A stretch of DNA of 64,000 nucleotides, taken from Bacteroidales bacterium. Lineage in GTDB: Bacteria > Bacteroidota > Bacteroidia > Bacteroidales > UBA932. The first letter of the stretch is position 1. Each line of letters opens with the position of its first letter. The notes under the pieces were generated by a model. That model was not told the DNA's origin and did no database searches. It saw only the letters and a list, made by a program, of their open reading frames with translations. Below are positions 3,037-60,895 of this stretch, piece after piece. The DNA is taken from positions 110,178 to 174,177 of the forward strand of contig JALCKZ010000001.1 in NCBI GenBank assembly GCA_022647615.1, in the 5' to 3' direction. The translations under genes were made by a program, and so were the position numbers.

Positions 3037-3048
3037 CATCTTTGGAAA

Positions 3049-5142: not shown

Positions 5143-5155
5143 TTCAAAATTAGAA

Positions 5156-5935: not shown

Positions 5936-5952
5936 TTTTTTCCTCCCGACAG

Positions 5953-7836: not shown

Positions 7837-7846
7837 ATTCAGCTTG

Positions 7847-7854
7847 CAAATTTA
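7847..7854 (-). promoter_or_regulatory. Candidate Bacteroidota -7 box (TAaaTTTG) upstream of batD
   Basis: Exact TAnnTTTG match on the minus strand, 10 nt upstream of the batD ATG, in the 61-nt batB/C-batD spacer. Confidence 0.35.
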
Positions 7855-7897
7855 TTAAATCTTACCCTTAATTACCTATTAAACAGATATCAAAATT

Positions 7898-9793: not shown

Positions 9794-9804
9794 ATCTCCT
9801 CCTC

Positions 9805-12101: not shown

Positions 12102-12976
12102 CTCTGCTTAAAAAACTTTATCAAACTCTTCACATAATCCTCATTGGTACAAATGCTTACAGAATCTACGCGGTACTTGTTGAAAAGCTGCTGCGCCTGT
12201 TTTAAAACTTCCTGTCCCCATTGAGAATAGTAATCTCTCACATAAATGCTTGCCGTATCAACCCAGCTTTCTCTCCCGCTCTCAGCATCTCTCACTCTCA
12301 CAAAACCCACATTAGGAATCTCTCTTTCCCTTGGGTCATAGACATTTATGAAAGAGATATCATGGCGGTTAACCGCAATCTTAAGAGCCTCCTCATAGTT
12401 AGGTCTGCAATCTTTGTCAACATCATACAAATCCGTCAGGACAAAGGCAGTACACTTTTTCTTTATTGCATTTGTCAAAAACCTCAGCGCCTCTGAAATA
12501 TTTGTCCCCTGCGCAGTTGGCTTAAATTCAAGCAATTCGCTTATAATTCTTAAAAGATGACTTCTCCCCTTCTTTGGAGGAATGAACTTCTCAACCTTGG
12601 AGGAGAAAAACAGCGCCCCAACTTTATCATTGTTGATAGAGGCTGAAAATGAGAGAACTGCAGCAATTTCCGCTGCCAAATCTCTTTTGCTTTTTTCCGT
12701 TGTTCCAAAAATTCCGGAAGAACTGACATCAATCAGCAGCACAACCGTGAGCTCCCTCTCCTCCTCATACACTTTGATGTAAGGCGAACGCAACCTGGCA
12801 GTTACATTCCAGTCCATACTGCGCACATCATCTCCAAACTGATACTCGCGCACCTCGCTGAATGCCATACCTCTCCCTTTAAATGCAGAGTGATACTCAC
12901 CCGCAAATATCTGATGAGAAAGAGATCTGGTTCTTATCTCTATCTTCCTTACTTTACTTAGTAAATCTGTATCCAT
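12098..12976 (-). CDS. DUF58-family protein (MoxR-associated, VWA-like)
   Basis: 292 aa with the typical REYQFGDD..R.IDW-like motif (REYQFGDDVRSMDW). Lies immediately downstream of MoxR. Confidence 0.85.
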   Translation of the reverse strand: MDTDLLSKVRKIEIRTRSLSHQIFAGEYHSAFKGRGMAFSEVREYQFGDDVRSMDWNVTARLRSPYIKVYEEERELTVVLLIDVSSSGIFGTTEKSKRDLAAEIAAVLSFSASINNDKVGALFFSSKVEKFIPPKKGRSHLLRIISELLEFKPTAQGTNISEALRFLTNAIKKKCTAFVLTDLYDVDKDCRPNYEEALKIAVNRHDISFINVYDPREREIPNVGFVRVRDAESGRESWVDTASIYVRDYYSQWGQEVLKQAQQLFNKYRVDSVSICTNEDYVKSLIKFFKQR

Positions 12977-13004
12977 TTACTTGCTCTCCAACACAAAAAT
13001 TCTA

Positions 13005-13997
13005 TTAAGGAACTTCAACAACATTAACAACATCAGTAATTATATTCTCCGGTGTAATATTCTCTGCCTCAGCCTCATAAGTAAGACCAATTCTGTGTCT
13101 CATAACCTCATAGCAAACGGCGCGGACATCCTCCGGAATAACATAACCTCTTCTCTTGATAAATGCATAAGCCTTGGCAGCCTTTGCAAGTGAGATACTT
13201 GCACGCGGAGAAGCTCCGTACTGAATCAAATTCTTAAGTTTGCCAAGTCCGTATTCCTGCGGAGTTCTTGTTGCATAAACTATATCTACAATGTATTTTT
13301 CAATCTTCTCATCCATGTAAACATCTTTAACAACGCTTCTTGCACGGATGATATCTTCCGGCTTCAAAACTGTACTTGCCTTAGGGAACTGCTGGGCATT
13401 GTGCATTCTGATAATCATCTTCTCCTCATCTTTCTTAGGATAATTAACAATTACCTTCAGCATGAAACGGTCCATCTGAGCCTCAGGAAGAGGATATGTA
13501 CCCTCCTGCTCTATAGGGTTTTGCGTAGCCATAACCAAGAACGGATCTGGCAATTTGTAAGTCTGGTCGCCAATTGTAACCTCCCTCTCCTGCATGGCCT
13601 CCAGCAATGCGGACTGAACCTTTGCAGGTGAACGGTTAATTTCATCCGCAAGAACAAAGTTTGCAAATACGGGACCCTGCTTAACCTGGAACTGCTCGCT
13701 CTTCTGACTGTAAATCATTGTGCCCACAATATCTGCCGGCAACAAATCCGGAGTAAATTGAATCCTATTAAACTTTGCATCAATGATATCAGCCAATGTG
13801 CTGATAGCCAAAGTTTTTGCCAATCCGGGCATTCCTTCCAGCAGCAAATGTCCGTCTGCAAGAAGACCAATCATCAAATCCTCAACCAAGTGCTTCTGCC
13901 CCACAATCACCTTGTTCATCTCCATTGTGATAATGTCCACAAAGGCACTCTCTTTCTGAATTCTGTCATTCAGTTCCTTAATGTTTACACTCTCCAT
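13005..13997 (-). CDS. moxR: MoxR-family AAA+ ATPase
   Basis: 330 aa with Walker A GMPGLAKT, Walker B LADEINR and the MoxR-typical ATQNPIEQEGTYPLPEAQ.DRF. Confidence 0.9.
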   Translation of the reverse strand: MESVNIKELNDRIQKESAFVDIITMEMNKVIVGQKHLVEDLMIGLLADGHLLLEGMPGLAKTLAISTLADIIDAKFNRIQFTPDLLPADIVGTMIYSQKSEQFQVKQGPVFANFVLADEINRSPAKVQSALLEAMQEREVTIGDQTYKLPDPFLVMATQNPIEQEGTYPLPEAQMDRFMLKVIVNYPKKDEEKMIIRMHNAQQFPKASTVLKPEDIIRARSVVKDVYMDEKIEKYIVDIVYATRTPQEYGLGKLKNLIQYGASPRASISLAKAAKAYAFIKRRGYVIPEDVRAVCYEVMRHRIGLTYEAEAENITPENIITDVVNVVEVP

Positions 13998-14028
13998 ATA
14001 AAATTATTTTTTGTCTATTTTTTCTCTC

Positions 14029-14036
14029 TATCTTTG
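14029..14036 (+). promoter_or_regulatory. Candidate -7 box (TAtcTTTG) for truA
   Basis: Exact TAnnTTTG, 40 nt upstream of the truA ATG, with TTTG at 14010-14013 upstream. Confidence 0.35.
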
Positions 14037-14038
14037 CC

Positions 14039-14071
14039 CTGTCGGGATAAAAATATTTTTCCTCCCGACAG
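14039..14071. repeat. CTGTCGGGA...TCCCGACAG palindromic hairpin in the moxR/truA divergent spacer
   Basis: 9-bp perfect arms (14039-14047 and 14063-14071) around an AT palindrome (aaaaatattttt). The hairpin ends 5 nt before the truA ATG. Confidence 0.8.
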
Positions 14072-14075
14072 CTTT

Positions 14076-14918
14076 ATGAAATATTTTATCCGTCTTTCAT
14101 ATAACGGCGCCCCCTTCAGCGGCTGGCAAATTCAAAAAAACGCAAACAGCGTTCAGGAGGAACTTCAAAAGGCTTTCTCCACTCTCCTAAAAGAGAAGAT
14201 TGAAATTACCGGTGCGGGAAGAACAGACAGCGGAGTCAACGCCGTCAACTATATAGCCCATACGGAAATTTCATCTATTGGTAAAAACCCGGCTGAGTTT
14301 CTTTACAAAATAAATGCCATTCTGCCCAAAGAAATAGTAGTAAAGAACATTTTTAAAATGCCCGCCTCCGCTCATGCAAGATTTGATGCGGTGAGCAGGA
14401 CCTACAAATACTTCTTAACGCTTGAAAAAGAACCGTTTAACTCAGCTTTTACATACTTTTACAGACCCGGGCAGCTGGATTTTGAAGCTATGAATAAGGC
14501 GGCAAAGTACTTCCTTGGAGAGCAAGATTTTACCAGCCTGGAAAAACTGCACAGCGGAGCGCAAAATGCCATCTGCAACGTAACCGCCGCCTGCTGGGAA
14601 CGTCAAGCCGGCAGCACAGCGGCAGGAACCCGCGGCGCAGCGGCAGGAACCGGTGGCGCAGCAGCAGAAACCGGCGGCGCAGCTTTTATAATACCCTGTG
14701 CAACAGATATATATGTATTCACTGTTACATCAAACAGATTCCTGCGCAATATGGTCAGAGCAATGGTAGGTTCACTTTTGGAAGTTGGCAGCGGCAAACG
14801 CAAACCGGAGTGGATTGCAGAGATGCTTGCCCGCAAAGACAGATGCGCCGCCGGTTACTCCGTCCCCGGCAATGCCCTATTCCTTACAGAGATACGCTAT
14901 CCATATCCGATAGAATAA
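14076..14918 (+). CDS. truA: tRNA pseudouridine(38-40) synthase TruA
   Basis: From the internal Met: MKYFIRLSYNGAPFSGWQIQ...GAGRTDSGVNA (catalytic Asp)...FLRNMVR. The ORF-track start at 13758 overlaps moxR and is rejected. Confidence 0.85.
   Translation: MKYFIRLSYNGAPFSGWQIQKNANSVQEELQKAFSTLLKEKIEITGAGRTDSGVNAVNYIAHTEISSIGKNPAEFLYKINAILPKEIVVKNIFKMPASAHARFDAVSRTYKYFLTLEKEPFNSAFTYFYRPGQLDFEAMNKAAKYFLGEQDFTSLEKLHSGAQNAICNVTAACWERQAGSTAAGTRGAAAGTGGAAAETGGAAFIIPCATDIYVFTVTSNRFLRNMVRAMVGSLLEVGSGKRKPEWIAEMLARKDRCAAGYSVPGNALFLTEIRYPYPIE
14613..14683 (+). repeat. In-frame GC-rich 21-nt tandem repeat (about 3.4 units) inside truA
   Basis: Units are agcacagcggcaggaacccgc / ggcgcagcggcaggaaccggt / ggcgcagcagcagaaaccggc / ggcgcagc. 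They encode STAAGTRGAAAGTGGAAAETGGAA. Confidence 0.85.
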
Positions 14919-14946
14919 TCCTACGATTCTCAATCCCGGGTAATGA

Positions 14947-15077
14947 TAACAAGGCATAAAAAATAACGGGCTCTTTTCGCCCGTTATTTTTTTGCCCGCG
15001 CGCCACGTGGCGCGCTGCCTCCTCGTGGCGGCAGCCACGTAAACCACTAATTGCCAGCATGCTTTGTATGCTGGCAA
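14947..15077 (-). repeat. GC-rich multi-hairpin repeat, copy C (reverse orientation)
   Basis: Collinear with the reverse complement of 31841-31962. Order is terminator hairpin, gcgcgcca/tggcgcgc, cgtggc-ggca-gccacg, taaaccactaa, then ttgccagcat-GCTTTGT-atgctggcaa. Confidence 0.85.
14963..14993 (+). terminator. Rho-independent terminator of truA (part of repeat copy C)
   Basis: Stem ataacgggc/gcccgttat with a 7-nt loop, followed by a T7 run. Confidence 0.7.
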
Positions 15078-15120
15078 CTCGCAGACTGCACAGCAGGCTG
15101 CGTGAAGATGCTACCGCTTA

Positions 15121-15253
15121 AGAACGCACAGAAAGGCAAAAAGTTAATCTATTGATAATGTGTTAATTGCAAGGTCTACGATTTTTGAGGGGATAAAAAC
15201 GCCGTAACTTACTGATAGTCAGATAGGGTAATTTTTGCCTTTTTGTGCGTTCT
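15121..15253. repeat. 22-bp inverted repeat pair (21/22 match) flanking an 89-nt spacer
   Basis: agaacgcacagaaaggcaaaaa (15121-15142) versus tttttgcctttttgtgcgttct (15232-15253). The second arm runs into TTCTGGAGGGGGTGGC. Confidence 0.8.
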
Positions 15254-15358
15254 GGAGGGGGTGGCAAAGTGCTTCTCCACGCATCCTATAGAGGTGGTAT
15301 GCACAGTACATTTCTACGCGTCCAGGTGTGAAACGAAAAACCGCTTCGCAGAGCTTAT

Positions 15359-15476
15359 ATTTGGGTTTTTATTAAAATACAGATATACAACAAGATACAT
15401 GGATTGAAAAAATCAAAACCTGATTTTCACAAACGTGCAATGCGCTTATTATCTGCAACTTGGTAAAAACCCAAAT
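15359..15476. repeat. 13-bp perfect inverted repeat pair flanking a 92-nt spacer
   Basis: atttgggttttta (15359-15371) versus taaaaacccaaat (15464-15476). TTCTGGAGGGGGGGGGGTGGC follows 8 nt later, paralleling the module at 15121-15268. Confidence 0.8.
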
Positions 15477-15491
15477 CCACGTACTTCTGGA

Positions 15492-15501
15492 GGGGGGGGG
15501 G
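15492..15501 (+). repeat. Homopolymeric G10 tract
   Basis: Ten consecutive G in a low-GC intergenic context. The paralogous motif at 15257-15261 has G5. Confidence 0.9.
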
Positions 15502-15546
15502 TGGCGGGAATGAAACAGCAGCTCGGAAAAAAGGAATTGTGTTAAG

Positions 15547-15672
15547 CACGCTCCGCATGCAGTTACCAGCGCACAAAGCGCGCTGGTAATGTGTGGTTTA
15601 CGCGGCTCCCGCCGCGAGGAGGCACGCGCTCCGCGCGGGCAAAAATCTGCTGAGCAGAAAATTTTGCCTTGC
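15547..15672 (+). repeat. GC-rich multi-hairpin repeat, copy B (forward orientation)
   Basis: cacgctccgcatgcag, ttaccagcgc-ACAAAGC-gcgctggtaa, tgtgtggttta, cgcggc-tccc-gccgcg, aggaggca, cgcgc-tcc-gcgcg, ggcaaaaa, tctgc-tga-gcaga, aaattttgccttg. Confidence 0.85.
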
Positions 15673-15790
15673 GGAATTTTTCCCATTGAAAAAAGCCATG
15701 GGAAATTTTTGCGTTGAGGATTTTCAATTGAAAGAAAAGCCGTGGGAAATTTTTGCCTTGTGAATTTTCCATTGTGAATTTGTACCTTTG
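15659..15790 (+). repeat. Imperfect tandem repeat of about 44 nt (about 3 units) upstream of exbB
   Basis: Units start at 15659, 15703 and 15747, each beginning (g)aaattttt-gc(c/g)ttg. This is the tail motif of the multi-hairpin repeat, triplicated. Confidence 0.75.
15783..15790 (+). promoter_or_regulatory. Candidate -7 box (TAccTTTG) for exbB
   Basis: Exact TAnnTTTG, 67 nt upstream of the exbB ATG. Confidence 0.35.
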
Positions 15791-15857
15791 ATTTTTGCAT
15801 AATATTTGCAAGGGTTGCGTGGGTGTGGAAAACAGAAATTTATAAACGTAAAACAAT

Positions 15858-16580
15858 ATGACATTATTAACATTCCTATTACAGGCAGACACAGCTGCGG
15901 CAATTGATCAGGCCGCTCAAACTGTCGCAGTTAAACAGCAAGCTTCTATGTCCCTGATTGACATGACAATAAAGGGAGGATGGCTGATGATTCCTCTGTT
16001 TATTCTCTCCATTTTGACCATCTATATCTTTGGTGTAAAATGGTATACAATCAGAAAGGCATCAAAGGTTAATCCTAATTTCATGAATGATATTAAGGAT
16101 TTGATTCACGACGGGAAAATTAAGTCTGCGCTTGCACTGTGCAAGAGAGAAGATACGCCTGTTTCACGTCTAATTGAGAAAGGCATAGAGAGGATGGGAC
16201 GTCCGCTTACAGATATACAGGCAGCCGTGGAAAACCTTGGCAATATAGAAGTTGCAAGGTTGGAGAAAGGTCTTCCGGGACTCGCTTCAATTGCGGGAGG
16301 CGCACCTATGATAGGATTTTTGGGTACCGTACTTGGTATGGTTCAGGCATTCTTTAATATGTCACAAGCCGGCAACAATATAGATATCACGCTGTTATCA
16401 GGAGGTATTTACACAGCCATGGTTACAACCGTTGCAGGTTTGATAGTTGGTATTCTTGCTTTCTTTGGGTATAACTACCTGACAGCAAAGGTTTCTGATT
16501 TGGTATTCATGCTGCAGAGCAACACAATTGAGTTCATGGATTTGCTTCATGAGCCTGGTGATAGCACCGTTGCAAAATAG
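15858..16580 (+). CDS. exbB: MotA/TolQ/ExbB proton-channel protein
   Basis: 240 aa with three TM helices and the typical ...LASIAGGAPMIGFLGTVLGM... motif, followed by ExbD and TonB-like genes. Confidence 0.85.
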   Translation: MTLLTFLLQADTAAAIDQAAQTVAVKQQASMSLIDMTIKGGWLMIPLFILSILTIYIFGVKWYTIRKASKVNPNFMNDIKDLIHDGKIKSALALCKREDTPVSRLIEKGIERMGRPLTDIQAAVENLGNIEVARLEKGLPGLASIAGGAPMIGFLGTVLGMVQAFFNMSQAGNNIDITLLSGGIYTAMVTTVAGLIVGILAFFGYNYLTAKVSDLVFMLQSNTIEFMDLLHEPGDSTVAK

Positions 16581-16661
16581 CAACAGGACAAAAAACGACA
16601 GCAAAAAAACTGTCGGGATAAAAATAGAACTAGTACATAATTAGTTAATTAACAAATTAAT

Positions 16662-19367: not shown

Positions 19368-20960
19368 TTACTTGTAAGAGCCCATCTTGAGCATCCCTAT
19401 CTCCTGCTGAGTAAGGAATCTCCACTGTCCGCGTCTTAGTCCCTTCTTTGTAAGTCCCGCAAAATAAACACGGTCCAGCTTCTTAACTTTATATCCAAGA
19501 CTCTCAAAAATTCTCCTGACAATTCTGTTTCTGCCGGTATGGATTTCTATTCCAAGCTGGCTCTCATCTTCATCTATATATGAAAGCGCATCAGCATTAA
19601 TAGGTCCGTCTTCCAGTTCAATACCGTTTACAATCTTCTCAAAATCATCCTTTTTCAGATTCTTATCCAAAAAGACCTGATAGATTTTTTTCTTCTCATA
19701 AGAAGGATGTGTCAGCTGTTCTGTGAGTTCTCCGTCATTTGTCAGCAGCAGCACGCCCGTTGTCTCTCTATCTAGTCTCCCGACAGGATATACTCTCTCA
19801 GCACATTTGCCCTCCACCAAATCCATTACGGTCTTTTCCGCATGAGGGTCAGAAGTTGTTGTAACATAATCTTTTGGCTTATTCATTAAGATGTAAACTT
19901 TCTGTTCGCCCTTAATAACCTCACCATTGAACTTAACAACATCATTCTGAAAAACTTTTGTTCCAAGCTCAGTAATTACCTGATCATTAATAGAAACCAC
20001 TCCGGCTGTGATAAAATCATCAGCCTCTCTTCTGGAACAAATTCCTGAATTTGCAATAAACTTATTTAAACGAGTTCCCTCTTCTCCAGCAGCCTTTGGC
20101 TGTCTTGGTTTAGGGGTATATTCCTGAACGTAAGAGCGCTGCTTATCCAAAGTCTCATCCCCGTTCTCTTGGAATCTGTCTATTCTGCTCTCATTCATCT
20201 CCTCCCTGCGGGCAGCTCTCTCTGCATCAAAATCCCTGCGCGGCTTCCTGTCTCTATCTCCAAAACTTCTTCTTGGTCTGTCGCCTCCGTCTCGTGAACC
20301 GCCAAAGCTTCTGCGAGGTCTGTCGCCTCCATCACGTGAACCGCCAAAGCTTCTTCTTGGACGGTCTCCAAATGTTCTTGGTTTATCTCCGTAACTCCTT
20401 CTCTCTCTGTGCTCTCCTCCCTCCTTGTCATCATCAAATTTTCTTCTGAAAGGTCTGTCTCCAAAACTCCTCGGCTTATCCCCAAAACTTCTTCTTGGAC
20501 GGTCGCCTCCATCACGTGAGCCGCCAAAACTTCTTCTTGGACGGTCGCCAAATGTTCTTGGTTTATCTCCGTAACTCTTTCTTTCTCTGTGCTCTCCCCC
20601 CTCCTTGTCATCATCAAATTTCCTTCTGAAAGGTCTGTCTCCAAAACTCCTCGGCTTATCTCCAAAGCTCCTTCTTGGTCTATCTCCTCCGTCACGTGAA
20701 CTCCCGTAACTCCTTCTTGGTCTGTCACCTCCGTCACGCGAACCGCCAAAACTTCTTCTTGGACGGTCACCTCCATCGCGCGTTCCTCTGAAACTTCTGC
20801 GCGGTTTCTCATCTGAGCCTTCACCTTTATCATCTCTGTCGTGATGAAAACTCCTTCTCTGCGGACGTCCTGAGCCTTCCCCGGCTGAGAACTTTCTGTG
20901 TCCGTAGCTGCGTCCTGTACTCTTTGAGTCAGAGCGCCTTGGTCTAAATTCCTTTTCCAT
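19368..20960 (-). CDS. rluB: RluB/RsuA-family pseudouridine synthase with a long RG/RD-rich repetitive N-terminal extension
   Basis: The C-terminal 270 aa hold an S4 domain (RLNKFIANSGICSRREAD) and a catalytic PVGRLD motif. The N-terminal 255 aa or so are repeats of GGSRDGGDRPRRSFG. Confidence 0.85.
   Translation of the reverse strand: MEKEFRPRRSDSKSTGRSYGHRKFSAGEGSGRPQRRSFHHDRDDKGEGSDEKPRRSFRGTRDGGDRPRRSFGGSRDGGDRPRRSYGSSRDGGDRPRRSFGDKPRSFGDRPFRRKFDDDKEGGEHRERKSYGDKPRTFGDRPRRSFGGSRDGGDRPRRSFGDKPRSFGDRPFRRKFDDDKEGGEHRERRSYGDKPRTFGDRPRRSFGGSRDGGDRPRRSFGGSRDGGDRPRRSFGDRDRKPRRDFDAERAARREEMNESRIDRFQENGDETLDKQRSYVQEYTPKPRQPKAAGEEGTRLNKFIANSGICSRREADDFITAGVVSINDQVITELGTKVFQNDVVKFNGEVIKGEQKVYILMNKPKDYVTTTSDPHAEKTVMDLVEGKCAERVYPVGRLDRETTGVLLLTNDGELTEQLTHPSYEKKKIYQVFLDKNLKKDDFEKIVNGIELEDGPINADALSYIDEDESQLGIEIHTGRNRIVRRIFESLGYKVKKLDRVYFAGLTKKGLRRGQWRFLTQQEIGMLKMGSYK
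20320..20690 (-). repeat. Near-identical 180-nt tandem duplication inside the rluB N-terminal region
   Basis: Lines 20341-20460 and 20521-20640 are almost identical at a 180-nt offset. Each unit encodes about 60 aa (FGDKPRSFGDRPFRRKFDDDKEGGEHRER.SYGDKPRTFGDRPRRSFGGSRDGGDRPRRS). Confidence 0.9.
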
Positions 20961-26489: not shown

Positions 26490-27017
26490 ATGATACTTTC
26501 TTTATGCGGTTTTATGTCATGCGGCAAAAGCGGCATGGGGCGTTACCTAGCCAATGAGTTAAAAACGCAAGTCATTGACTTGGACAGTTATATAGAGACG
26601 CAGGAAGGATGTACCGTTTCTGAATATTTTGCAAAAAATGGAGAAGAAAAATTCCGGGCAACGGAATTAAATGCGCTAAAAAAGATTATCGCAGATTACC
26701 GGGATAAAAATCTAATTCTATCTCTCGGCGGCGGAACGCCAATGAATCCTGAGTGCAAAAAGCTCATCAAAGAGAAAACTTTTTGCATCTATCTCACCTG
26801 TACAATTAAAGAGCTGGCTTTCAGATTAAAAGACACGGCAAGTCAGCGCCCCGTCTTTGCCGCCAAAGGAGAAGCAGATACAGAATCGTGGGTAAAAACC
26901 ATGCTTGCCAAAAGAGAACCATCTTATCTACAATGCTCTAAACTCCAGGTAGATACCACCATCTGGGATAAAAAATCCATAGCAGAAGAAATCCTAAAAA
27001 GATTACCTAACAGGTAA
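26490..27017 (+). CDS. aroK: Shikimate kinase
   Basis: 175 aa with P-loop GFMSCGKS, D.D...IE, and FR..E...L and LGGG motifs. Confidence 0.8.
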   Translation: MILSLCGFMSCGKSGMGRYLANELKTQVIDLDSYIETQEGCTVSEYFAKNGEEKFRATELNALKKIIADYRDKNLILSLGGGTPMNPECKKLIKEKTFCIYLTCTIKELAFRLKDTASQRPVFAAKGEADTESWVKTMLAKREPSYLQCSKLQVDTTIWDKKSIAEEILKRLPNR

Positions 27018-27039
27018 TATCAATGTCCCCAAGCGGAGC

Positions 27040-27206
27040 GGCAAAGTCGCGAACGCCGCGCCAAAGGCGCGTGCCTCCTTCACCGCGGCAGCGGTGTTAA
27101 CCACAAGGCAATGCGCTGCTTTGTAGCGCATTGCTGCAGCCCGCGCAGCGGGCTGTACTTGCTGCTTTGTAGCGCATTGCTTCAGCAACCTGTAAAACAG
27201 GTTGCA
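27040..27206 (-). repeat. GC-rich multi-hairpin repeat, copy D (reverse orientation, diverged and partly duplicated)
   Basis: cgcgcc-aaa-ggcgcg, tgcctcc, caccgc-ggca-gcggtg, ttaaccacaa, gcaatgcgct-GCTTTGT-agcgcattgc. It then has cagcccgc-gca-gcgggctg, a second GCTTTGT-agcgcattgc half, and gcaacctg-taaaa-caggttgc. Confidence 0.8.
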
Positions 27207-27269
27207 GTAAAAAATCCCTTATTGAGGGAGATTTTTTGCAAAAAAAGCACTCATTGAGGGATTTTTATT

Positions 27270-27277
27270 TATATTTG
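27270..27277 (+). promoter_or_regulatory. Candidate -7 box (TAtaTTTG) for the COG1373 ATPase
   Basis: Exact TAnnTTTG, 17 nt upstream of the ATG at 27295. Confidence 0.4.
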
Positions 27278-27294
27278 CAACAAATCTTAAAGCC

Positions 27295-28470
27295 ATGATA
27301 GAGGATTCATTATATGCATACATGTCGGAAAAGATTAAAGCAACACCGACAAAATTCAACCGCTACAAGTACAGTCAAATCAATTGGGGTGACAGATTGA
27401 TTGGCATTATTGGTCCAAGAGGAATTGGAAAGACCACAATGATGCTACAATATCTCATAGCACATCAATACACTGGGAATCACTTATATGTAGCTGCTGA
27501 CAATATTTATTTTGCAAATCATACTATTCTAGAATTGGCCGATGATTTTGTTAAGGAAGGCGGAACTAATTTATACATAGATGAAATTCATAAATATTCT
27601 GGATGGTCAAGAGAATTAAAACAAGTTTATGATGTTCACCCTGATTTGCATATAGTTTTTACAGGTTCCTCTATATTAGACATATACAAAGGCAAAGCAG
27701 ATTTAAGCAGACGTGTGGTAATGTATGAAATGCAGGGAATGTCCTTCAGAGAGTATCTGGCATTATATCAAAATGTTGATGTCAGAGTTTACACTCTAGA
27801 GGAGATTCTAGCACATAAAGTTAAAATTAAAGGCATCCAACACCCGCTGCCTCTTTTCAGAAAATATCTTAAACAGGGCTACTATCCTTTTGCAATGGAG
27901 GGAAGTTTTGCAATACGAATGGAACAGGTCATTACTCAAACTATTGAAAATGACATACCTATGTACACAGACATGAAAGCAGTTACTGCAAAAAAATTGA
28001 AAAGGATGCTTTCTATTATTTCCACTCTTGCTCCTTTTAAACCAAACGCAGACAACATGGCAAAAGAAATCGGGGTTAGTAAAAATAATATCTCTGACTA
28101 TTTGATTATGCTGGAAAAAACAGGCATGATTGGACAACTTAGAGACAACACCGGAGGAATGCGTGGTTTGGGCAAAGTTGAAAAAGTTTATGTAGATAAT
28201 CCTAGTCTAATGTATGTTTTATCAGGAGATAAGCCTGAAATTGGCAATATCAGAGAGACCTTTTTTTATAATCAAATGCGAGTAATGAATGATGTAACCT
28301 CATCAAAGGCGTCTGATTTTAAAGTAGATAAATATACCTTTGAAATTGGAGGTCACAAAAAAGGACATAAGCAGATAGAAAATATCAGCAATGGTTTTGT
28401 GGTCAAGGATGACATTGAGGTCGGACACGGAGACGTTATCCCGCTGTGGCAATTTGGGTTTAATTACTAA
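27295..28470 (+). CDS. COG1373-type AAA+ ATPase with a degenerate C-terminal nuclease-like motif
   Basis: 391 aa with Walker A GPRGIGKTT, Walker B LYIDEIH and a wHTH-like middle region. The C-terminal SDFKVD-KYTFEIGGHKKG aligns with EVDLIV..VEIKSG of the paralogue at 110-1291. Confidence 0.75.
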   Translation: MIEDSLYAYMSEKIKATPTKFNRYKYSQINWGDRLIGIIGPRGIGKTTMMLQYLIAHQYTGNHLYVAADNIYFANHTILELADDFVKEGGTNLYIDEIHKYSGWSRELKQVYDVHPDLHIVFTGSSILDIYKGKADLSRRVVMYEMQGMSFREYLALYQNVDVRVYTLEEILAHKVKIKGIQHPLPLFRKYLKQGYYPFAMEGSFAIRMEQVITQTIENDIPMYTDMKAVTAKKLKRMLSIISTLAPFKPNADNMAKEIGVSKNNISDYLIMLEKTGMIGQLRDNTGGMRGLGKVEKVYVDNPSLMYVLSGDKPEIGNIRETFFYNQMRVMNDVTSSKASDFKVDKYTFEIGGHKKGHKQIENISNGFVVKDDIEVGHGDVIPLWQFGFNY

Positions 28471-28480
28471 CGTTATTTGT

Positions 28481-28488
28481 TAACTTTG
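28481..28488 (+). promoter_or_regulatory. Candidate -7 box (TAacTTTG) for mcrBC
   Basis: Exact TAnnTTTG in the 82-nt spacer, 64 nt upstream of the mcrB ATG. Confidence 0.35.
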
Positions 28489-28552
28489 TTATTGAATGAA
28501 ATAAAGTACGCTCTCTAAAATTAAAGGAATCAGGTAAAAAAGACAGCTAGCA

Positions 28553-30550
28553 ATGGATATTAAAAATAAAATCGAAGACGAATTAAGGAATAATAAACCA
28601 TTGTATGAAAACATCTCCTCCTCTAAAGAATTCTATTTCGCAAAAGCTAGAGATGCATGGAATCAATGGAAAAGCTTACAGATTGATGGTAAGTTGATTA
28701 CAGAACTTATTTCTTTAGATTACAAGGATTTTAGTAAAAGAGAAGATATTTCAAATATTAGGGATACCTTATTTAAGTTTGTTGCCCATTGTGACACTAA
28801 AGCAAAGGATAAAAATGATATAAACGAATATCAAGACCACCGAGCTATCGCGCAAGTTGGCGTTTATCAAAATAACTGGATTAGCCAATTATTAAAGTAC
28901 AAACTGGACCCTAAAAGCGTAACGGACACGATGACTAACCTATTCAACTACATTGAAGATCCAAGGAACCATCTGCCTATTTTAAGCGAGCAGCATAAAT
29001 CACTTATCGCAAAATTCTTCTTTGAAAAAGGATATGACAGAACGACTTTTGCAACTGAGGCTAAAGCATATTTTGAAAAGTTTTGCCAGTGCGAAAATGA
29101 CGAAAACAACACATACTTTTATTCAAGGCTAATCTATGGATTAAAAACGCTATGGGATAGCAGAGATATTCAAGGACTGATTTGCCGTGATTCTAATGAC
29201 TCCTGGAAAGACTCCTATATAAACGATATGAAGGCTAATAAGCACGCTTGTCTATGGTGGAATACAAGCCCCGTTGATAGAGCAGATGTCATTAAAAAAT
29301 TATCCTCAATTGTAGAAGCTGGAGGCACCTTTGTTGTATACTTTGTAAGTCAAAATTATGCGACATATAAGGCCACAGTAATAGATTTCGCTGTTGAAAA
29401 AAATTATACTAAAAAGGCCAACAACTGGAGGCAATATGAACCTGAACCTGTAGAATTTAAAGATAATTTTAAAGACTATAGTGATGGTGATAAACATGCG
29501 GCAATTGTTTTTCTTGCAAGCAAATTTGAGAAACTAACTTCACCAATTGACATCGAAAATTTTAAGACTTATAATGGTGCTAAATACCCGCAAGTTATAC
29601 ATATAGTAGCCTTTACAAAAATACTTTCAAACCAAGACAAAGAAATGGAAACAAATATAGATTCATGCAAGTACCTTTTGGAGACTAATCGCAATTTAAT
29701 ATTGCAAGGTGCTCCCGGTACAGGAAAAACATACAATTCTGCATCAATAGCAGTAGCTCTCATTGACGACAATTTTGTGAATTTTAATGACCATAGCGAA
29801 GTAATGAAAAAATATGAAGACCTGAGAAAAAACGAACAAATTGCTTTCATAACATTCCACCAATCAATGGATTATGAAGATTTTGTAGAAGGTCTAAGGC
29901 CTATTGTAAAAGATAAAAACATAGCCTATCAATTGGAAGATGGAATCTTTAAAAAAATATGTGCTGTAGCAAAAGGGAATCCGGATAAAAAGTATGTCCT
30001 TATTATCGATGAAATAAATCGTGGTAATGTTTCGAAAATCTTTGGCGAATTAATAACATTGATTGAAAAAGATAAGAGGCTCCTCAGCACACATCCACTA
30101 ACTATTCCACTAACATACTCAAAAGTTGATTTCGGAGTGCCTAACAATGTGTACATTATAGGGACGATGAATACTACAGACAGAAGCACTGGCACATTGG
30201 ATTATGCGCTACGTAGACGTTTTGTATTCAAAACATTGCCTTCTCAGAAAAATATTGTGGAGAATCAAGGTTCAAATATTGCTCAAGAAGCTGCAACACT
30301 ATTTGATGACGTATTTAATTTCATTAAGAGCTACAAGGCGGATGATATGAATATAGAGGATTTAATGGTAGGACATAGTTATTTTCTTGCTGAAAGTGAA
30401 AAAGAACTTAAGATGAAAATAAGCTATGGAGTGATCCCTTTAATCAAAGAATACATTAAGGATGGTATACTTCGTCAGCCCAAGACAACAGATAAAGACA
30501 CGAAAGACTATTTCGATAATTGGACAAATCTACTCCCATTAAGTCAATAG
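28553..30550 (+). CDS. mcrB: McrB-family AAA+ GTPase (Type IV restriction) with an unassigned N-terminal region of about 370 aa
   Basis: Walker A GAPGTGKTY (aa 386), FHQSMDYEDFVEG, Walker B LIIDEINRGNVSKIFGEL, the McrB signature GTMNTTDRS and ALRRRF. No AAA motif occurs in the first 370 aa or so. Confidence 0.85.
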   Translation: MDIKNKIEDELRNNKPLYENISSSKEFYFAKARDAWNQWKSLQIDGKLITELISLDYKDFSKREDISNIRDTLFKFVAHCDTKAKDKNDINEYQDHRAIAQVGVYQNNWISQLLKYKLDPKSVTDTMTNLFNYIEDPRNHLPILSEQHKSLIAKFFFEKGYDRTTFATEAKAYFEKFCQCENDENNTYFYSRLIYGLKTLWDSRDIQGLICRDSNDSWKDSYINDMKANKHACLWWNTSPVDRADVIKKLSSIVEAGGTFVVYFVSQNYATYKATVIDFAVEKNYTKKANNWRQYEPEPVEFKDNFKDYSDGDKHAAIVFLASKFEKLTSPIDIENFKTYNGAKYPQVIHIVAFTKILSNQDKEMETNIDSCKYLLETNRNLILQGAPGTGKTYNSASIAVALIDDNFVNFNDHSEVMKKYEDLRKNEQIAFITFHQSMDYEDFVEGLRPIVKDKNIAYQLEDGIFKKICAVAKGNPDKKYVLIIDEINRGNVSKIFGELITLIEKDKRLLSTHPLTIPLTYSKVDFGVPNNVYIIGTMNTTDRSTGTLDYALRRRFVFKTLPSQKNIVENQGSNIAQEAATLFDDVFNFIKSYKADDMNIEDLMVGHSYFLAESEKELKMKISYGVIPLIKEYIKDGILRQPKTTDKDTKDYFDNWTNLLPLSQ

Positions 30551-30554
30551 TCTG

Positions 30555-31829
30555 ATGAGAACAACTAAGGTCATTCATGAACATGATTGTTTTCCAGATA
30601 AAGTATCATATCTTAAATATGATTCGAGGCTAGGGAATGGTTTTCCCCTATTTCCTCCTGGTACCTCGGATTTCAATCAGCGTTATTTTATTCAATGGGA
30701 AGGGCTTGATAATAAGCCCGGTTATAGAGCATCTTATATGATAGGTGCTCAGTGGATAAATACTGAGCATGATCAAATTCCCGTAGCAGTTGTACCAAAA
30801 ATTGAACACATAGATTTTTTAAAAATGTTTATGTCCTGTTTCTACAGTAATTTAGCTGAAGACTCATTTTCTAAGATTTACCATATTGATACCTCAAAGA
30901 AGGAAATTGAATGTCAAGAACTTGACAGTATTTTAAGCCCTTTAATTGTCCTTCATTTTCTTGCCGTAACTAAATCTCTTATAGCAAAAGGCTTAAAAAA
31001 AGATTATGTGAATAGGGATGGGAACATGCATAAAGTTAAAGGCAGGCTGGATATTCGTAAGAACGAAAAAACTAATGTGTTGACAAGAAGACTTGACCGA
31101 TTTTACTGTAATTATCAAGAATATTCAGAGGATATCCCGGAAAATAGAATCATTAAAAAAGCTCTTATAATATCGCAAGTGATTCTACAAAAAATACAAC
31201 CACAACAATCAGAAGGGGCTATCAATATCTTGCGCAAATGCCTAGCTGTAATGAGTGGAGTTGGTAACACGATAGAGCAACATGAGGTCTCAATGATTAA
31301 ACATCATAAACTTTTCAAAGAGTATGAAGAGAGTATAAAGTTGGCAAAACTCATTTTAAAAAGATATGATTTCAGCATTACCAAAGAAGGTAAAAACCAT
31401 GATTTTGTGCCAGTATTTTGGATTGATATGCCATTGCTATATGAGCACTATGTTTATGGATTATTGTCTGCATCGTATCCTGACGATATAATCTATCAAG
31501 CTGAAGGACAGACCGGATATCCTGATTTCTTGTGTAAGTCACATAAGTTGATTTTGGATACCAAGTACATTCCTGATAGTGATATACATTTGGATACTTA
31601 TGTAATTCGGCAGTTGTCAGGATATGCTCGCGACAATGCAATACTCAATCAACTAAACGCAGACTATAAAGAAGTGGTGCCATGCGTTATCATATATCCC
31701 AAGGAGTCAGTTGATAATGAGGTAGTAAATGATTTTAACAAACCGTTAAATAAATTATGGACACAATACGAAGGTTTAGTGGAGTTTTACACAATTTGTG
31801 TTAATCTGCCTAATATAGTAAAAAGATAG
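30555..31829 (+). CDS. mcrC: McrC-like nuclease subunit
   Basis: 424 aa starting 4 nt after the mcrB stop. C-terminal PD-(D/E)xK-like GYPDFLC...LILDTKY, with size and order typical of McrC. Confidence 0.8.
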   Translation: MRTTKVIHEHDCFPDKVSYLKYDSRLGNGFPLFPPGTSDFNQRYFIQWEGLDNKPGYRASYMIGAQWINTEHDQIPVAVVPKIEHIDFLKMFMSCFYSNLAEDSFSKIYHIDTSKKEIECQELDSILSPLIVLHFLAVTKSLIAKGLKKDYVNRDGNMHKVKGRLDIRKNEKTNVLTRRLDRFYCNYQEYSEDIPENRIIKKALIISQVILQKIQPQQSEGAINILRKCLAVMSGVGNTIEQHEVSMIKHHKLFKEYEESIKLAKLILKRYDFSITKEGKNHDFVPVFWIDMPLLYEHYVYGLLSASYPDDIIYQAEGQTGYPDFLCKSHKLILDTKYIPDSDIHLDTYVIRQLSGYARDNAILNQLNADYKEVVPCVIIYPKESVDNEVVNDFNKPLNKLWTQYEGLVEFYTICVNLPNIVKR

Positions 31830-31840
31830 TACTATACGAG

Positions 31841-31962
31841 TTGCCAGCGCACAAAGCGCACTGGCAATTAGTGGTTTACGCGGCTCCGCCGCGAAGCTGC
31901 ACGCGCTCCGCGCGGGCAAAAAAAAACAGGCAAAAATGCCTGTTATTTTTTATGCCTTGTTA
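31841..31962 (+). repeat. GC-rich multi-hairpin repeat, copy A (forward orientation, most compact copy)
   Basis: ttgccagcgc-ACAAAGC-gcactggcaa, ttagtggttta, cgcggc-tcc-gccgcg, aagctgca, cgcgc-tcc-gcgcg, ggcaaaaaaaaa, caggc-aaaaat-gcctg, ttattttttatgccttgtta. Confidence 0.9.
31925..31951. terminator. Bidirectional rho-independent terminator between mcrC and recJ (part of repeat copy A)
   Basis: Stem aacaggc/gcctgtt, preceded by A9 and followed by aTTTTTT. The flanking genes are convergent. Confidence 0.7.
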
Positions 31963-31992
31963 ATCTCCTTATATTACTTCTTGAAGATTTTC

Positions 31993-33750
31993 CTAGAAAC
32001 TCAAATCGTTGCGTTCACGTATATCCTTGATTCTCAGCTGAACATTGGCAATGCTGCTGCGGTAGAAATTCTCTGCAATTGAGTAGCAAATATCCACCGG
32101 ATTGCCCGCCTCCAGATGGTCAAAGTAATCCGACATGTTAAATGCTATTGCTGATAAATGACGATAAGGTTCATCCTCTTGAATCAGCTCCAGTTTCAAA
32201 TGTCCATTTTGACTCCCCACCTTTCTTCCATTACCGTCATCATAAACATTCTCCGTAATAAAAACAGGAGAAAGATTACCCGGACCAAACGGCTGAAATT
32301 GATTCAAAATTCTAAAAAACTTTGGAGTAATTTGATGGAACTCCAAATAAGAATCGGCTTTTATGATAGGAGTAAGTATCTCCTTTGTAATCTTCTTAGT
32401 AACAATCTCTTCAAAGCGTCTCTTAAACTCAGGAAGATTCTCCTCCTTAAGAGTAAGTCCGGCAGCATAAACATGGCCTCCAAAATTTTCCAGCAAATCT
32501 GAACAAGATTCAATTGCCTCATACAAATCAAATCCCGGAATACTTCTGGCAGAACCTGTAATAAAGCCATTTGAAGATTTTGTAAGAACAATAGTAGGTC
32601 TGTAAAATGCTTCTACCAAGCGGCTTGCGACAATACCTACAACTCCCTTGTGCCATCCCTCATTGTAAACCACAGTAGAATTGAGTTTCTCAAAATCGGG
32701 CTCCTTCTTCACAATCTCAATCGCCTCTTTAGTAATCTCCCTGTCTATGTTCTTGCGCTCATTATTATGGTCATTAATTTCCTTTCCAAATTTTGTTGCA
32801 TCAGCCTCATTCTGAGATGTAAGCAAATCAACTGCAGTCCTTCCGCTCTCCATTCTCCCCGCCGCATTAATTCTTGGACCAATCTTAAACACAATATCAT
32901 CTATCGTGATTTTATGCTTTTCCAAACCGGAAAGTTTTATCATTGCAAGAAGTCCCTTGCGCGGAGCCTCATTCAATCTCTTCAATCCAAAATAAGCGAG
33001 CACTCTGTTCTCTCCCGTAACTGACACTAAATCAGCTGCTATGCTTACAGCCACCAAATCCAGCAAAGTCTCAATTTTCTCAAAAGGAATCTGATATTTT
33101 TGCGCGTAACCCTGGACTAATTTAAAGCCCACTCCGCATCCCGACAGGTCATCAAAAGGATAATCACAGTCTGACCGCTTAGGGTCAAGGACAGCAACGG
33201 CGGGAGGAAGAATATCTCCCTGCAAGTGATGGTCGCAAATAATAAAATCTATCCCCTTCTCTTTTGCATACTTCACAGAATCAGCCTCTTTGATACCGCA
33301 GTCAAGCGCTATCACCAAGTTAAACTTACGCTCCGCAGCCCAGTCAACTCCATGAAAAGAGATACCATATCCCTCATCATATCTGTCGGGAATATAATAA
33401 TCTATCTCATCTTTTTCAGTGAGTGTTTTCAGAAAAGAATAAACCAAAGAAACTGCAGAAGTTCCGTCAACATCATAATCTCCATAGATGAGGATGCGTT
33501 CTTTTTTCTCAATTGCAGTATGAATACGCTCAACAGCAACATCCATGTCCTTCATTAAGAAAGGATTATGAAGCATTTTCAAATCGGGGCGGAAGAAGTC
33601 CCTGGCCTCCGCATAATCTTTTATTCCCCTCTGCACCAAAAGGTTTGCAAGCACCTCATCAATTCCAAGATCTTGCATAAGTTGCCTTGTGTAAAGAGGG
33701 TTGCCGGGCTCTCTTAGCACCCACTTCTTCTCTATATTTCTTACATCCAT
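31993..33750 (-). CDS. recJ: Single-stranded-DNA-specific exonuclease RecJ
   Basis: 585 aa with DHH motifs (YGDYDVDGTS, DCG, CDHH) and a DHHA1 GGH motif (FGGHVYAAG). Confidence 0.9.
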   Translation of the reverse strand: MDVRNIEKKWVLREPGNPLYTRQLMQDLGIDEVLANLLVQRGIKDYAEARDFFRPDLKMLHNPFLMKDMDVAVERIHTAIEKKERILIYGDYDVDGTSAVSLVYSFLKTLTEKDEIDYYIPDRYDEGYGISFHGVDWAAERKFNLVIALDCGIKEADSVKYAKEKGIDFIICDHHLQGDILPPAVAVLDPKRSDCDYPFDDLSGCGVGFKLVQGYAQKYQIPFEKIETLLDLVAVSIAADLVSVTGENRVLAYFGLKRLNEAPRKGLLAMIKLSGLEKHKITIDDIVFKIGPRINAAGRMESGRTAVDLLTSQNEADATKFGKEINDHNNERKNIDREITKEAIEIVKKEPDFEKLNSTVVYNEGWHKGVVGIVASRLVEAFYRPTIVLTKSSNGFITGSARSIPGFDLYEAIESCSDLLENFGGHVYAAGLTLKEENLPEFKRRFEEIVTKKITKEILTPIIKADSYLEFHQITPKFFRILNQFQPFGPGNLSPVFITENVYDDGNGRKVGSQNGHLKLELIQEDEPYRHLSAIAFNMSDYFDHLEAGNPVDICYSIAENFYRSSIANVQLRIKDIRERNDLSF

Positions 33751-36928: not shown

Positions 36929-37786
36929 ATGTCAAAGTTCGCCCTAATAGGAAATCCAATAAAACACTCTCTAAGCCCAGCCCTATTCAAAATAGCCTAC
37001 AGCGGAAATACAGATGAATATGAACTAATTGAATCCCAGAGTGTTGAGGAGGCAATGCAAAAAGTTCACGATGGCGAATACAGTGGCATCAATGTCACTG
37101 CTCCTTTCAAAGAATCCGTAATGCAGTATGTCACCCGTCCGGACTCCGTCACCACTCGCCTGCACGCCGCCAATACCCTGCTATTCAAGGGGGCAGAAGT
37201 TTTTTCCTACAATACCGATTATTTGGCCGTGAGGGAAATCTTGAGCATACGCTGCGCGCAGAGCAGTGCGGCACAAAGCGCCGCACTGCCAAGTGATTTA
37301 CGCGGCTTCCGCCGCGAGGATGCACGCGTGCTCCGCACGCGGCCTTTGGCAAATAGATTATATCCCTCTGCTGAAAGAAAAGCAATGGTAATTGGCGTAG
37401 GCGGTGCTGGGAAAGCAGCCGCACTGGCACTAAAAGACGCTGGCTACAAAACCATTATAGCAAACAGAACCATAGATAAAGCAAAAGAATTTGCTGCAGA
37501 AATAGGAGCAGAATCCGCCGGATTAAACGAGGTGGCAGATATTGTTAAACGCGTTGCAGTTATAGTATATGCGCTGCCGCTGAAAATAGAAGAGTTAAAA
37601 GAGAGTGACCTGTCGGGAGTACTATTGATTGAAGCAAATTATAAAAACCCCTCTTTCTCCGCAGCCCCAAACTACGTGGGCGGATTGGAATGGCTGGTGA
37701 ACCAGGCAATCCCGGGATTCAAGCTTTTTACAGGCCGGGAACCGTCAGCAGAGAGGATGAGGCTTTTTGCAGAATCAATAATTTAA
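36929..37786 (+). CDS. aroE: Shikimate dehydrogenase carrying an in-frame repeat-derived insertion of about 30 aa
   Basis: GNPIKHSLSP, NVT.PFK, NTDY and GVGGAGKAAA motifs. The NTDY-to-GxGG spacer is 54 aa, versus about 20-25 aa expected for the family. Confidence 0.8.
   Translation: MSKFALIGNPIKHSLSPALFKIAYSGNTDEYELIESQSVEEAMQKVHDGEYSGINVTAPFKESVMQYVTRPDSVTTRLHAANTLLFKGAEVFSYNTDYLAVREILSIRCAQSSAAQSAALPSDLRGFRREDARVLRTRPLANRLYPSAERKAMVIGVGGAGKAAALALKDAGYKTIIANRTIDKAKEFAAEIGAESAGLNEVADIVKRVAVIVYALPLKIEELKESDLSGVLLIEANYKNPSFSAAPNYVGGLEWLVNQAIPGFKLFTGREPSAERMRLFAESII
37248..37343 (+). repeat. GC-rich multi-hairpin repeat, copy E, inside the aroE ORF (in frame)
   Basis: tacgctgcgcgcagag, cagtgcggc-ACAAAGC-gccgcactg, ccaagtgattta, cgcggc-ttcc-gccgcg, aggatgca, cgcgtgc-tcc-gcacgcg, gcctttggcaaa. 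It lacks the terminator module. Confidence 0.85.
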
Positions 37787-60769: not shown

Positions 60770-60890
60770 GCAGCAAGTCACAGCAATAGGCAAATTGCAG
60801 CAATAAGCAAGTCACAGCAATAAGCAAATTGCAGCAATAAGCAAATCACAGCAATAAGCAAATCACTGCACACAGCAATAGGCAAATCAT
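60761..60890 (+). repeat. 17-nt tandem repeat (about 7 units, CAGCAATAAGCAAATYR)
   Basis: Units begin at 60761, 60781, 60798, 60815, 60832, 60849 and 60873. The first unit contains the last two codons and the TAA stop of the preceding gene. Confidence 0.9.
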
Positions 60891-60895
60891 AAAAA

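Follow-up and report, generated by a model that had tools for sequence, protein, structure and literature searches.

Genes and composition of the aroK/recJ interval

We analyzed a 64-kb stretch of contig JALCKZ010000001.1 (assembly GCA_022647615.1, positions 110,178–174,177; hereafter the window, whose own numbering is used throughout) from an uncultured gut Bacteroidales bacterium. Between the core genes aroK and recJ, the window carries three accessory genes that encode an ATPase and the two subunits of an McrBC restriction system, with copies of a structured repeat on either side. A preliminary description, made from the sequence alone, had regarded the interval as a horizontally acquired Type IV restriction island, perhaps captured or mobilized as one repeat-bounded cassette and with the ATPase as a possible third partner of McrBC. 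The left core gene, aroK (shikimate kinase; 26,490–27,017, + strand; Pfam SKI, 4e-38), is convergent with recJ on the right (31,993–33,750, − strand; DHH/DHHA1/RecJ_OB), an arrangement that is conserved in related species. Open reading frames (ORFs) for the three co-oriented genes lie exactly where they had been described, all on the + strand: the ATPase (module 1) at 27,295–28,470, McrB (module 2a) at 28,553–30,550 and McrC (module 2b) at 30,555–31,829, the last starting 4 nt past mcrB. Repeat D separates aroK from the ATPase gene, and repeat A follows mcrC. A terminator-like bidirectional hairpin, TCCCTTATTGAGGGA, with A and T runs on either side, is found at 27,215–27,229 between repeat D and the putative ATPase promoter, and is kept in both sister lineages introduced below. 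The candidate promoter motif itself, TATATTTG (27,271–27,278, + strand), lies 17 nt 5' of the ATPase start codon and fits the Bacteroidetes −7 motif, TAnnTTTG. The 82-nt spacer between the ATPase gene and mcrB (28,471–28,552, + strand) gives no terminator prediction and holds the TAnnTTTG-like sequence TAACTTTG.

The three genes have GC fractions of 0.357, 0.341, and 0.343, the lowest three among the 45 genes of the window (mean 0.423, standard deviation 0.024; z = −2.7 to −3.4). The AT-richness that had been noticed by eye is thus real (0.34–0.36 versus 0.42), and in the windowed tetranucleotide analysis that had been suggested as a check, 27,501–32,000 is the top outlier, the most deviant 4.5-kb window in the 64 kb (0.306 versus a mean of 0.175, standard deviation 0.034). 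Domain searches of the three genes and of six antisense ORFs of ≥60 aa reveal no transposase, integrase, or methylase, in agreement with what the eye had failed to recognize there; neither a transposase nor an integrase is found in the cassette, in the window, or in the 10 kb on either side of it.

The ATPase of module 1 matches Pfam AAA_14 (6e-27) and, in its C-terminal tail, DUF4143 (2e-6, with a score of 28.1 bits that falls exactly on the gathering cutoff); the middle of the protein is winged helix-turn-helix–like. Walker A (GPRGIGKT, aa 40) and Walker B (YIDEIH, aa 94) motifs are present. A phmmer search against the Protein Data Bank (PDB) returned nothing informative. Six models of the PADLOC candidate system PDC-S01 match the protein, the best at 3.5e-21. 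DUF4143/COG1373 is listed as a PD-(D/E)XK family (PMC3424549), and PDC-S01 is reported to be the most frequent individual defense locus in rumen genomes (PMC13356809). The window ATPase shares with this group the AAA_14–DUF4143 architecture and the stand-alone occurrence documented below, but its DUF4143 match reaches only the threshold. To our knowledge, the defense activity of the PDC-S01/COG1373 family is still a prediction.

McrB is recognized by the NCBIfam McrB model over aa 366–648 (5e-44), by AAA_5, and by the Escherichia coli McrB sequence in the PDB (6hz4, 1.5e-41). The GTPase motifs GAPGTGKT (aa 386), DEINR (aa 486), MNTTDRS (aa 539), and RRRF (aa 554) are all present, and the Walker A, DEINR, and MNTTDRS motifs are invariant in 31 homologs. 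The downstream gene product matches PF10117 (McrBC, 1.2e-30) and the NCBIfam McrC model (1.2e-17), is too diverged to be matched by phmmer to any of the solved McrC chains in the PDB, and harbors a candidate PD...DxK nuclease motif, assigned by eye, in GYPDF (aa 321) and LDTKY (aa 334). A domain search detected no methyltransferase in or beside the cassette. Judged by its GTPase motifs and the adjacent McrC, 28,553–31,829 is predicted to be a canonical two-gene McrBC Type IV system. The AAA+ part of McrB aligns over aa 366–649 with E. coli K-12 McrBC (PDB 6hz4 and 6ut6; Foldseek 1e-19, TM score to target 0.74–0.76) and also superposes on the corresponding part of Thermococcus gammatolerans McrB. 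The window system and that of E. coli have in common Walker A, DEINR, MNT(T/A)DRS, and RRRF, an McrC directly downstream, and the lack of a cognate methyltransferase, but differ in that the N-terminal region of the window McrB extends over 360 aa and shows no sequence relationship to the N-domain of E. coli McrB.

Because the AAA+ domain dominates a fold search with full-length McrB, a separate N-terminal model was needed. The model of McrB, computed from an alignment of 31 full-length homologs, has a pLDDT of 87 overall and 92 for aa 1–360, and divides into an all-helical domain (aa 1–201), an α/β domain (aa ~205–357), and the AAA+ GTPase (aa 360–665). The helical domain has no fold match, and the N-terminal region matches no Pfam family. 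The α/β domain is matched by Foldseek to ASCH (2dp9, 5gus) and YTH (4wqn, 4u8t) structures; these matches are weak, with probabilities of 0.87–0.97 at E values of only 0.03–0.1 and a TM score of about 0.4. Modified-base readers of the PUA superfamily fused to McrB are known, for example, in EVE-McrB (PMC7641849). The window McrB resembles such proteins, including T. gammatolerans McrB with its YTH-like N-domain, in placing a PUA-like fold directly upstream of the GTPase, but it has no Pfam EVE, YTH, or ASCH match and carries an additional 200-aa helical domain in front. Between the window and sister lineage L216 the protein has diverged most in the PUA-like segment, with about 55% amino acid identity against 92 to 98% on either side, as would be expected of a specificity domain.

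By analogy, the helical and weakly PUA-like N-terminal domains of McrB would read modified bases, the AAA+ domain would hexamerize on GTP, and McrC would then be recruited to cut foreign modified DNA with its PD-DxK nuclease, so that no methyltransferase would be needed. A defense function and a modified-base specificity are inferred for the locus. More than 100 homologs at 42 to 50% identity share the uncharacterized 360-aa reader region, and its fast-diverging PUA-like part is a candidate source of new modified-base specificities in a sizeable McrB subfamily.

The junction in related species and sister lineages

To place the island in context, we used a RecJ-based scan that took one genome per species and retrieved 80 loci, the closest of which, at 80% RecJ identity, are from metagenome-assembled genomes (MAGs) of rumen and gut Bacteroidales. 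As judged by tblastn with the window proteins, lysS-recJ-aroK-parC synteny is widespread in these relatives. recJ and aroK are convergent in 20 loci and are separated by <250 bp in 17 of these, by as little as 9 bp. None of the related-species loci contains the ATPase, McrB, or McrC (tblastn), and none contains a copy of the repeat. Two water-buffalo MAGs with near-identical RecJ instead carry other cargo at the junction, a Fic/Bro-N gene in L002 (5385–6257) and a helix-turn-helix nucleotidyltransferase plus HepT (MNT-HEPN) toxin–antitoxin pair in L003 (11,842–12,733); L004 and L005 have no cargo there, and only 9 and 17 bp, respectively, separate the two core genes. The comparison of relatives that the preliminary description had called for thus turned up both empty and differently filled sites, and the occurrence of different cargo at one junction in close relatives identifies aroK/recJ as a hotspot. 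Absence from the syntenic junctions of relatives, deviant composition, and an McrB GTPase plus McrC unaccompanied by a methyltransferase together uphold the earlier view of a horizontally acquired Type IV restriction island. As a separate observation, AroK of L003 has a low-complexity insert of about 55 aa.

Defense hotspots that are flanked by core genes and lack mobility genes have reportedly been described in the pangenomes of E. coli and Pseudomonas. The aroK/recJ junction is similar in its varied defense and toxin cargo, its lack of an integrase, and its common empty sites, and differs in that the convergent 3' ends are only 9 to 50 bp apart and in that the hosts are uncultured Bacteroidales.

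Within the window species, all contigs with an identical AroK or RecJ carry the cassette together with repeats D and A. In one strain (L094, Logan SRR19542531, 3547–4822), the mcrC call is split into two overlapping ORFs (192 and 237 aa), either because the gene is a frameshifted pseudogene or because of an error in assembly. Two sister lineages, L216 and L245, are 93 to 95% identical to one another at the nucleotide level in parC and aroK, and each is 84 to 87% identical to the window. L216 reads parC' (partial), aroK, repeat, ATPase (99% amino acid identity), McrB (81%), and McrC' (partial). Its left repeat has the orientation of D but is of the A type (it matches the reverse complement of A at 94% identity), and both flanks can be aligned; turnover of the repeats is therefore independent of the genes beside them. 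A homology search with McrC, aimed at the right-hand boundary in this lineage, did not find an assembled ortholog from it.

L245 has a different structure, in the order parC' (partial), aroK, a D-type repeat (92–95% identical to D), the terminator, the promoter, the ATPase (99% amino acid identity), 31 nt, and the recJ stop codon. McrBC and repeat A are both missing, and the segment corresponding to window positions 28,471 to about 31,975 is replaced by about 22 unrelated nt. The left edge of this missing 3.5-kb segment falls directly past the ATPase stop codon. With D and the ATPase alone at the locus in L245, the interval from D to A is not indivisible, and the island consists of two modules. 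The ATPase would appear to function, or at least to persist in intact form, without McrBC in this lineage. The synonymous divergence of the accessory genes is 3 to 4 times lower than that of parC and recJ; as this ratio is the same in both lineage comparisons, an effect of rate or composition is inseparable from gene flow, and we do not use it as evidence.

These data bear directly on the possibility that the ATPase joins McrBC in a three-component restriction system in which the COG1373 ATPase-nuclease serves as a sensor, loader, or second effector. Such a system would fit the co-orientation of the genes, the 82-nt gap with no terminator predicted between the ATPase gene and mcrB, and the retention of this arrangement in the window species and in L216, but not the occurrence of a 99% identical ATPase alone at the same locus in L245. 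The closest ATPase homologs outside the clade (69–72% amino acid identity) are likewise solitary in three of three unrelated contexts: between an esterase-like gene (PF22244) and an acyl-CoA dehydrogenase gene (L221), downstream of rplU-rpmA (L222–224), and in a variable region beside AbiEii or HipA (L225–227). The L222 representative, from another species, is 71% identical and directly downstream of rplU-rpmA. Conversely, an McrBC pair that is 50% identical to that of the window lacks an AAA_14 neighbor in L219 and L220, and the two families are unequally populated, with hundreds of ATPase homologs at 65 to 72% identity, whereas the best McrB beyond the sister lineage (81%) is 50% identical. 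A TAnnTTTG-like motif of its own upstream of mcrB and the status of the ATPase family in PADLOC as a single-gene candidate point in the same direction, as does a second AAA_14/DUF4143 paralog in the window (110–1291, GC 0.361), which has no sequence relationship to the cassette ATPase and no McrBC beside it. One locus speaks for a partnership: in L217, an McrBC pair has two AAA_14/DUF4143 paralogs within 3 kb. On balance we regard a three-component system as highly improbable, and the earlier suggestion of a third McrBC partner is not sustained; the adjacency of ATPase and McrBC is explained by their common residence in a defense hotspot.

The L217 locus (1737–16,603), from a Bacteroidales MAG, holds a 49%-identical McrBC pair within a larger defense and toxin island that also includes RhuM, a P4 cII-like gene, and toxins of the RES and ADP-ribosyltransferase types, besides the two AAA_14/DUF4143 genes. 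The paralog at 110–1291 is probably another small defense islet. It comes after an unknown 366-aa gene and, just outside the window, a SIR2 gene, next to rplU-rpmA (L238, 8156–9959).

A lineage-restricted family of structured repeats

Repeat copies were located by a regular-expression scan, a repeat finder, and a hand-curated nhmmer profile, and the three methods concur on exactly five copies in the window, C, B, D, A, and E in map order; nhmmer finds no further copy in the 10 kb on either side. Each consists of hairpin 1 (H1, with the invariant loop ACAAAGC), GTGGTTTA, hairpin 2 (H2), AGGAGGCA, and hairpin 3 (H3). Copies A, B, and C carry an additional tail composed of an A-run, a fourth hairpin, a T-run, and TGCCTTG. 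An alignment of the stems (MAFFT) contains eight in-register pairs in which 100% of the cells can pair, with double compensatory changes in five of the eight, a level of pairing that is matched by none of 500 shuffles. Folding z-scores of the individual copies range from −2.7 to −8.6 relative to shuffled controls. The unpaired motifs ACAAAGC, GTGGTTTA, and AGGAGGCA are conserved across copies, and the stems covary. No Rfam family covers the repeats, either at the gathering cutoff or at E ≤ 5.

Repeat D (27,025–27,210, − strand; nhmmer 2.4e-14) has its H3-H2-H1 core at 27,050–27,135, with H1 toward the ATPase gene, and an extra hairpin at 27,176–27,206. It is a composite: to the core is added an internal insert of 46 nt, which includes part of a second H1 and is missing from the L245 ortholog. 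The core of repeat A (H1-H2-H3; 31,839–31,922, + strand; nhmmer 5.9e-18) starts with H1 10 nt past the mcrC stop codon and is followed by its tail (31,923–31,962), which contains a bidirectional intrinsic terminator-like hairpin (31,925–31,944), then TGCCTTGTTA, and is common to copy C; a terminator consensus scan scores this fourth hairpin of A as a bidirectional terminator. Repeat C (14,947–15,084, − strand), with a terminator-like tail, lies 29 nt downstream of truA, and repeat B (15,561–15,690, + strand) lies upstream of exbB. Repeat E (37,262–37,350, + strand) is within aroE.

The preliminary description had seen D and A as inverted copies flanking the cassette with their ACAAAGC-loop ends inward, and a second inward-facing pair around a gene-less segment at 14.9–15.7 kb. 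Both are borne out, the first with the extent of D given above and the second by C and B, which bracket 476 nt. In each case the geometry follows from the hairpin order, which on the + strand is H3-H2-H1 in D and H1-H2-H3 in A, so that both H1 ends point toward the cassette; C and B follow the same pattern around their segment. With only two pairs, however, the inward-facing arrangement (1/16, post hoc) is indistinguishable from chance. Moreover, in C, D, A, and the L216 copy, no more than about 30 nt separate the H3 or tail end from the stop codon of a core gene (truA, aroK, or recJ). Since aroK and recJ converge, this placement alone puts D and A in opposite orientations. The C/B pair is fixed in all 10 strain loci examined and is therefore uninformative with respect to mobility.

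These features allow the proposal of a single mobile cassette to be weighed, in which the three genes moved as a unit and the repeats served as terminal inverted repeats of a composite or MITE-like transposon mobilized in trans. Beyond the inward H1 ends of D and A and the same geometry of C and B around 476 nt, this proposal could draw on the fall-off in similarity to the sister lineages, which occurs at the left repeat, and on the like orientation of the left-edge repeat in L216. It cannot readily accommodate L245, in which D and the ATPase are present and McrBC and A are missing, nor a left end that is D-type or A-type by lineage when the cargo is 97% identical; D and A themselves are only about 65 to 70% alike. 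Target-site duplications are absent, the longest strings shared by the flanks being 4 to 6 nt, AT-rich, and at nonequivalent positions; the 10 kb beyond each end of the window, like the window and the cassette, supply neither transposase nor integrase; and copy E lacks cargo altogether. A D...A unit is found at no second site in the sequences searched, the nearest McrB elsewhere is 50% identical and without such repeats, and two pairs lend the geometry no statistical support. Capture or mobilization of one repeat-bounded cassette thus finds little footing here, and we give it only the faintest likelihood. An integron cassette or attC array was also considered and rejected, since D and A are inverted (attC sites share one orientation) and an integrase is absent; IS200-type ends were rejected on orientation and on the lack of an integrase or transposase.

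An nhmmer search over 2.6 Mb of DNA detects the family only in the window species and, in addition, as one copy each in L216 and L245 at the position of D, for a total of seven copies (five, one, and one). Metagenome contigs break at repeat copies. A metagenome scan with the loose pattern ACAAAGC-N9-16-GTGRTTWAC gave, among the matches listed, none with the full architecture. Repeat E adds about 31 codons in frame (about aa 112–141) to the aroE ORF at 36,929–37,786, at the point where the encoded shikimate dehydrogenase passes from its substrate-binding to its NAD-binding domain. It is missing from strains L083 and L089, which at the same point carry a different GC-rich insert made of two copies of an ~38-nt unit (about 6975–7130 in L089), and the strains differ in the called length of AroE (285, 296, or 254 aa). 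As a side observation on the same neighborhood, the window, L081, and L085 have a chloramphenicol acetyltransferase–family gene (PF00302; 36,271–36,897) between aroE and the SpoU methylase gene; strains L082, L083, and L089 lack it.

The closest parallels to these elements are the REP, BIME, and REPIN families and the Rickettsia palindromic elements (RPEs). Like them, the window repeats are short, GC-rich, hairpin-forming, and multicopy, with covarying stems and confinement to one lineage; like REPs in particular, they are found mostly at gene ends and often in inverted pairs, sometimes with DNA between the partners, and copy E in aroE is the counterpart of an in-frame RPE. REP families are known to form inverted (head–head or tail–tail) dimers, to have DNA inserted between dimer partners, and to include in-frame intragenic copies (PMC3733652). 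The window repeats differ from REPs in being longer, with three to four hairpins over 85 to 135 nt and conserved single-stranded linkers, and in the spacing of the pairs, 0.5 and 4.7 kb versus the 20 to 100 bp typical of REP dimers. A RAYT (Y1 transposase) is not encoded in the 84 kb of the genome that was read.

Taken together, we consider it probable that three things hold jointly. In this group of uncultured Bacteroidales from gut and rumen, the convergent aroK/recJ junction is a recombination hotspot for accessory genes of defense and toxin type; the island comprises two independent low-GC modules, a solitary ATPase with its own terminator and promoter and a two-gene McrBC; and the repeats are a lineage-restricted, REP/BIME-like or Rickettsia RPE-like family with three to four hairpins. 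The modules would have entered by homologous or illegitimate recombination rather than by transposition. The repeats settle next to gene ends, and once in frame inside aroE, and their gain, replacement, and remodeling are independent of the genes they flank; the tails of A, B, and C may act as bidirectional intrinsic terminators. The alternative that the preliminary description itself had offered, that the repeats are terminator-associated REP-like elements, accordingly fits better than a cassette, with the caveat that repeat A and McrBC are either both there or both missing.

That caveat belongs to a set of observations that weigh against this joint reading. Repeat A is gone exactly where McrBC is gone in L245, so that, as a single insertion or deletion, the two are possibly physically linked. 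D is 92 to 95% identical between the window and L245, yet the fourfold-degenerate sites of parC and recJ differ at 42 to 46%, and D thus behaves as part of module 1 or is strongly constrained. All five copies lie within 22.4 kb of the 84 kb examined, which is not what a genome-wide REP model predicts. The GTAG/CTAC or CGTC/GACG tags of classical REPs are absent from A, B, C, and E, and D has CTAC only inside hairpin loops. L216 (5.4 kb) and L245 (5.7 kb) are each a single short metagenomic contig, which could in principle be misassembled. Finally, the contexts sampled are few (three for ATPase homologs, two for nonorthologous McrB homologs), and the paired paralogs of the L217 McrBC locus run counter to the independence of the modules.

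Several of these points would be explained if the repeats were junction elements, that is, recombination or insertion sites, for instance of a structure-specific single-strand recombinase, with D having come with the ATPase and A with McrBC, or each module having been captured at its repeat, in a one-ended, repeat-guided accretion. In addition to the shared fate of A and McrBC and the low divergence that D shares with module 1, such a process would account for the placement of C, D, A, and the L216 copy with the H3 or tail end at the core-gene stop and H1 toward the cargo, for conserved unpaired motifs in covarying stems, as in a folded site recognized by a protein, and for the local clustering of copies. 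A recombinase for it is, however, neither known nor seen, and the Fic (L002) and MNT-HEPN (L003) cargoes occupy the same junction without a repeat of this family. E sits in aroE without cargo, and C and B bracket no recognizable gene. A single deletion in L245 accounts equally well for the joint loss of A and McrBC, and the lower synonymous divergence, with its constant ratio in both comparisons, reflects a rate or composition effect as much as linkage. We therefore view repeat-guided accretion as unlikely, and there is a slim chance that the repeat is a new kind of structure-specific site that guides the stepwise accretion of defense modules at core-gene 3' ends, with C and B around decayed cargo. 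If the repeats do take part in module capture, this would be a new mechanism for building defense islands. If, as we prefer, the junction is a hotspot with two independent modules and REP-like repeats, the locus illustrates, neatly but in no unusual way, how defense genes pile up at integrase-free hotspots, and the aroK/recJ junction is a defined place to mine for defense cargo in MAGs of rumen and gut Bacteroidales. The repeats are then an unannotated structured family at which metagenome assemblies break and whose members can enter the reading frame of a housekeeping enzyme.

Other features of the window

The segment between repeats C and B (15,085–15,560) consists of two similar modules, each an inverted repeat with ~29-nt arms followed by CTGGAGGGGG(TGGC), and has no Rfam match and no convincing ORF. 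The C/B region is fixed in all strains, save for copy-number variation of a 44-nt tandem unit at 15,691–15,774.

Further internal repeats unrelated to the island are found in three other places. The S4/pseudouridine synthase gene (19,368–20,960) has internal direct repeats of 180 and 42 nt in the region encoding its N terminus (20,255–20,813); its product is 530 or 544 aa long depending on the strain, and the gene is called as two ORFs in L084 and L232. In the BatA-D/VWA cluster, the ORF at 7898–9793 (631 aa) contains imperfect repeats with a 12- to 15-nt period (8047–8304) in a low-complexity coding region. Finally, a 17-nt tandem repeat of about nine AGCAATAAGCAARTYAC-like units (60,755–60,914) covers the 3' end of a thioredoxin-family gene (59,627–60,769) and extends past it.

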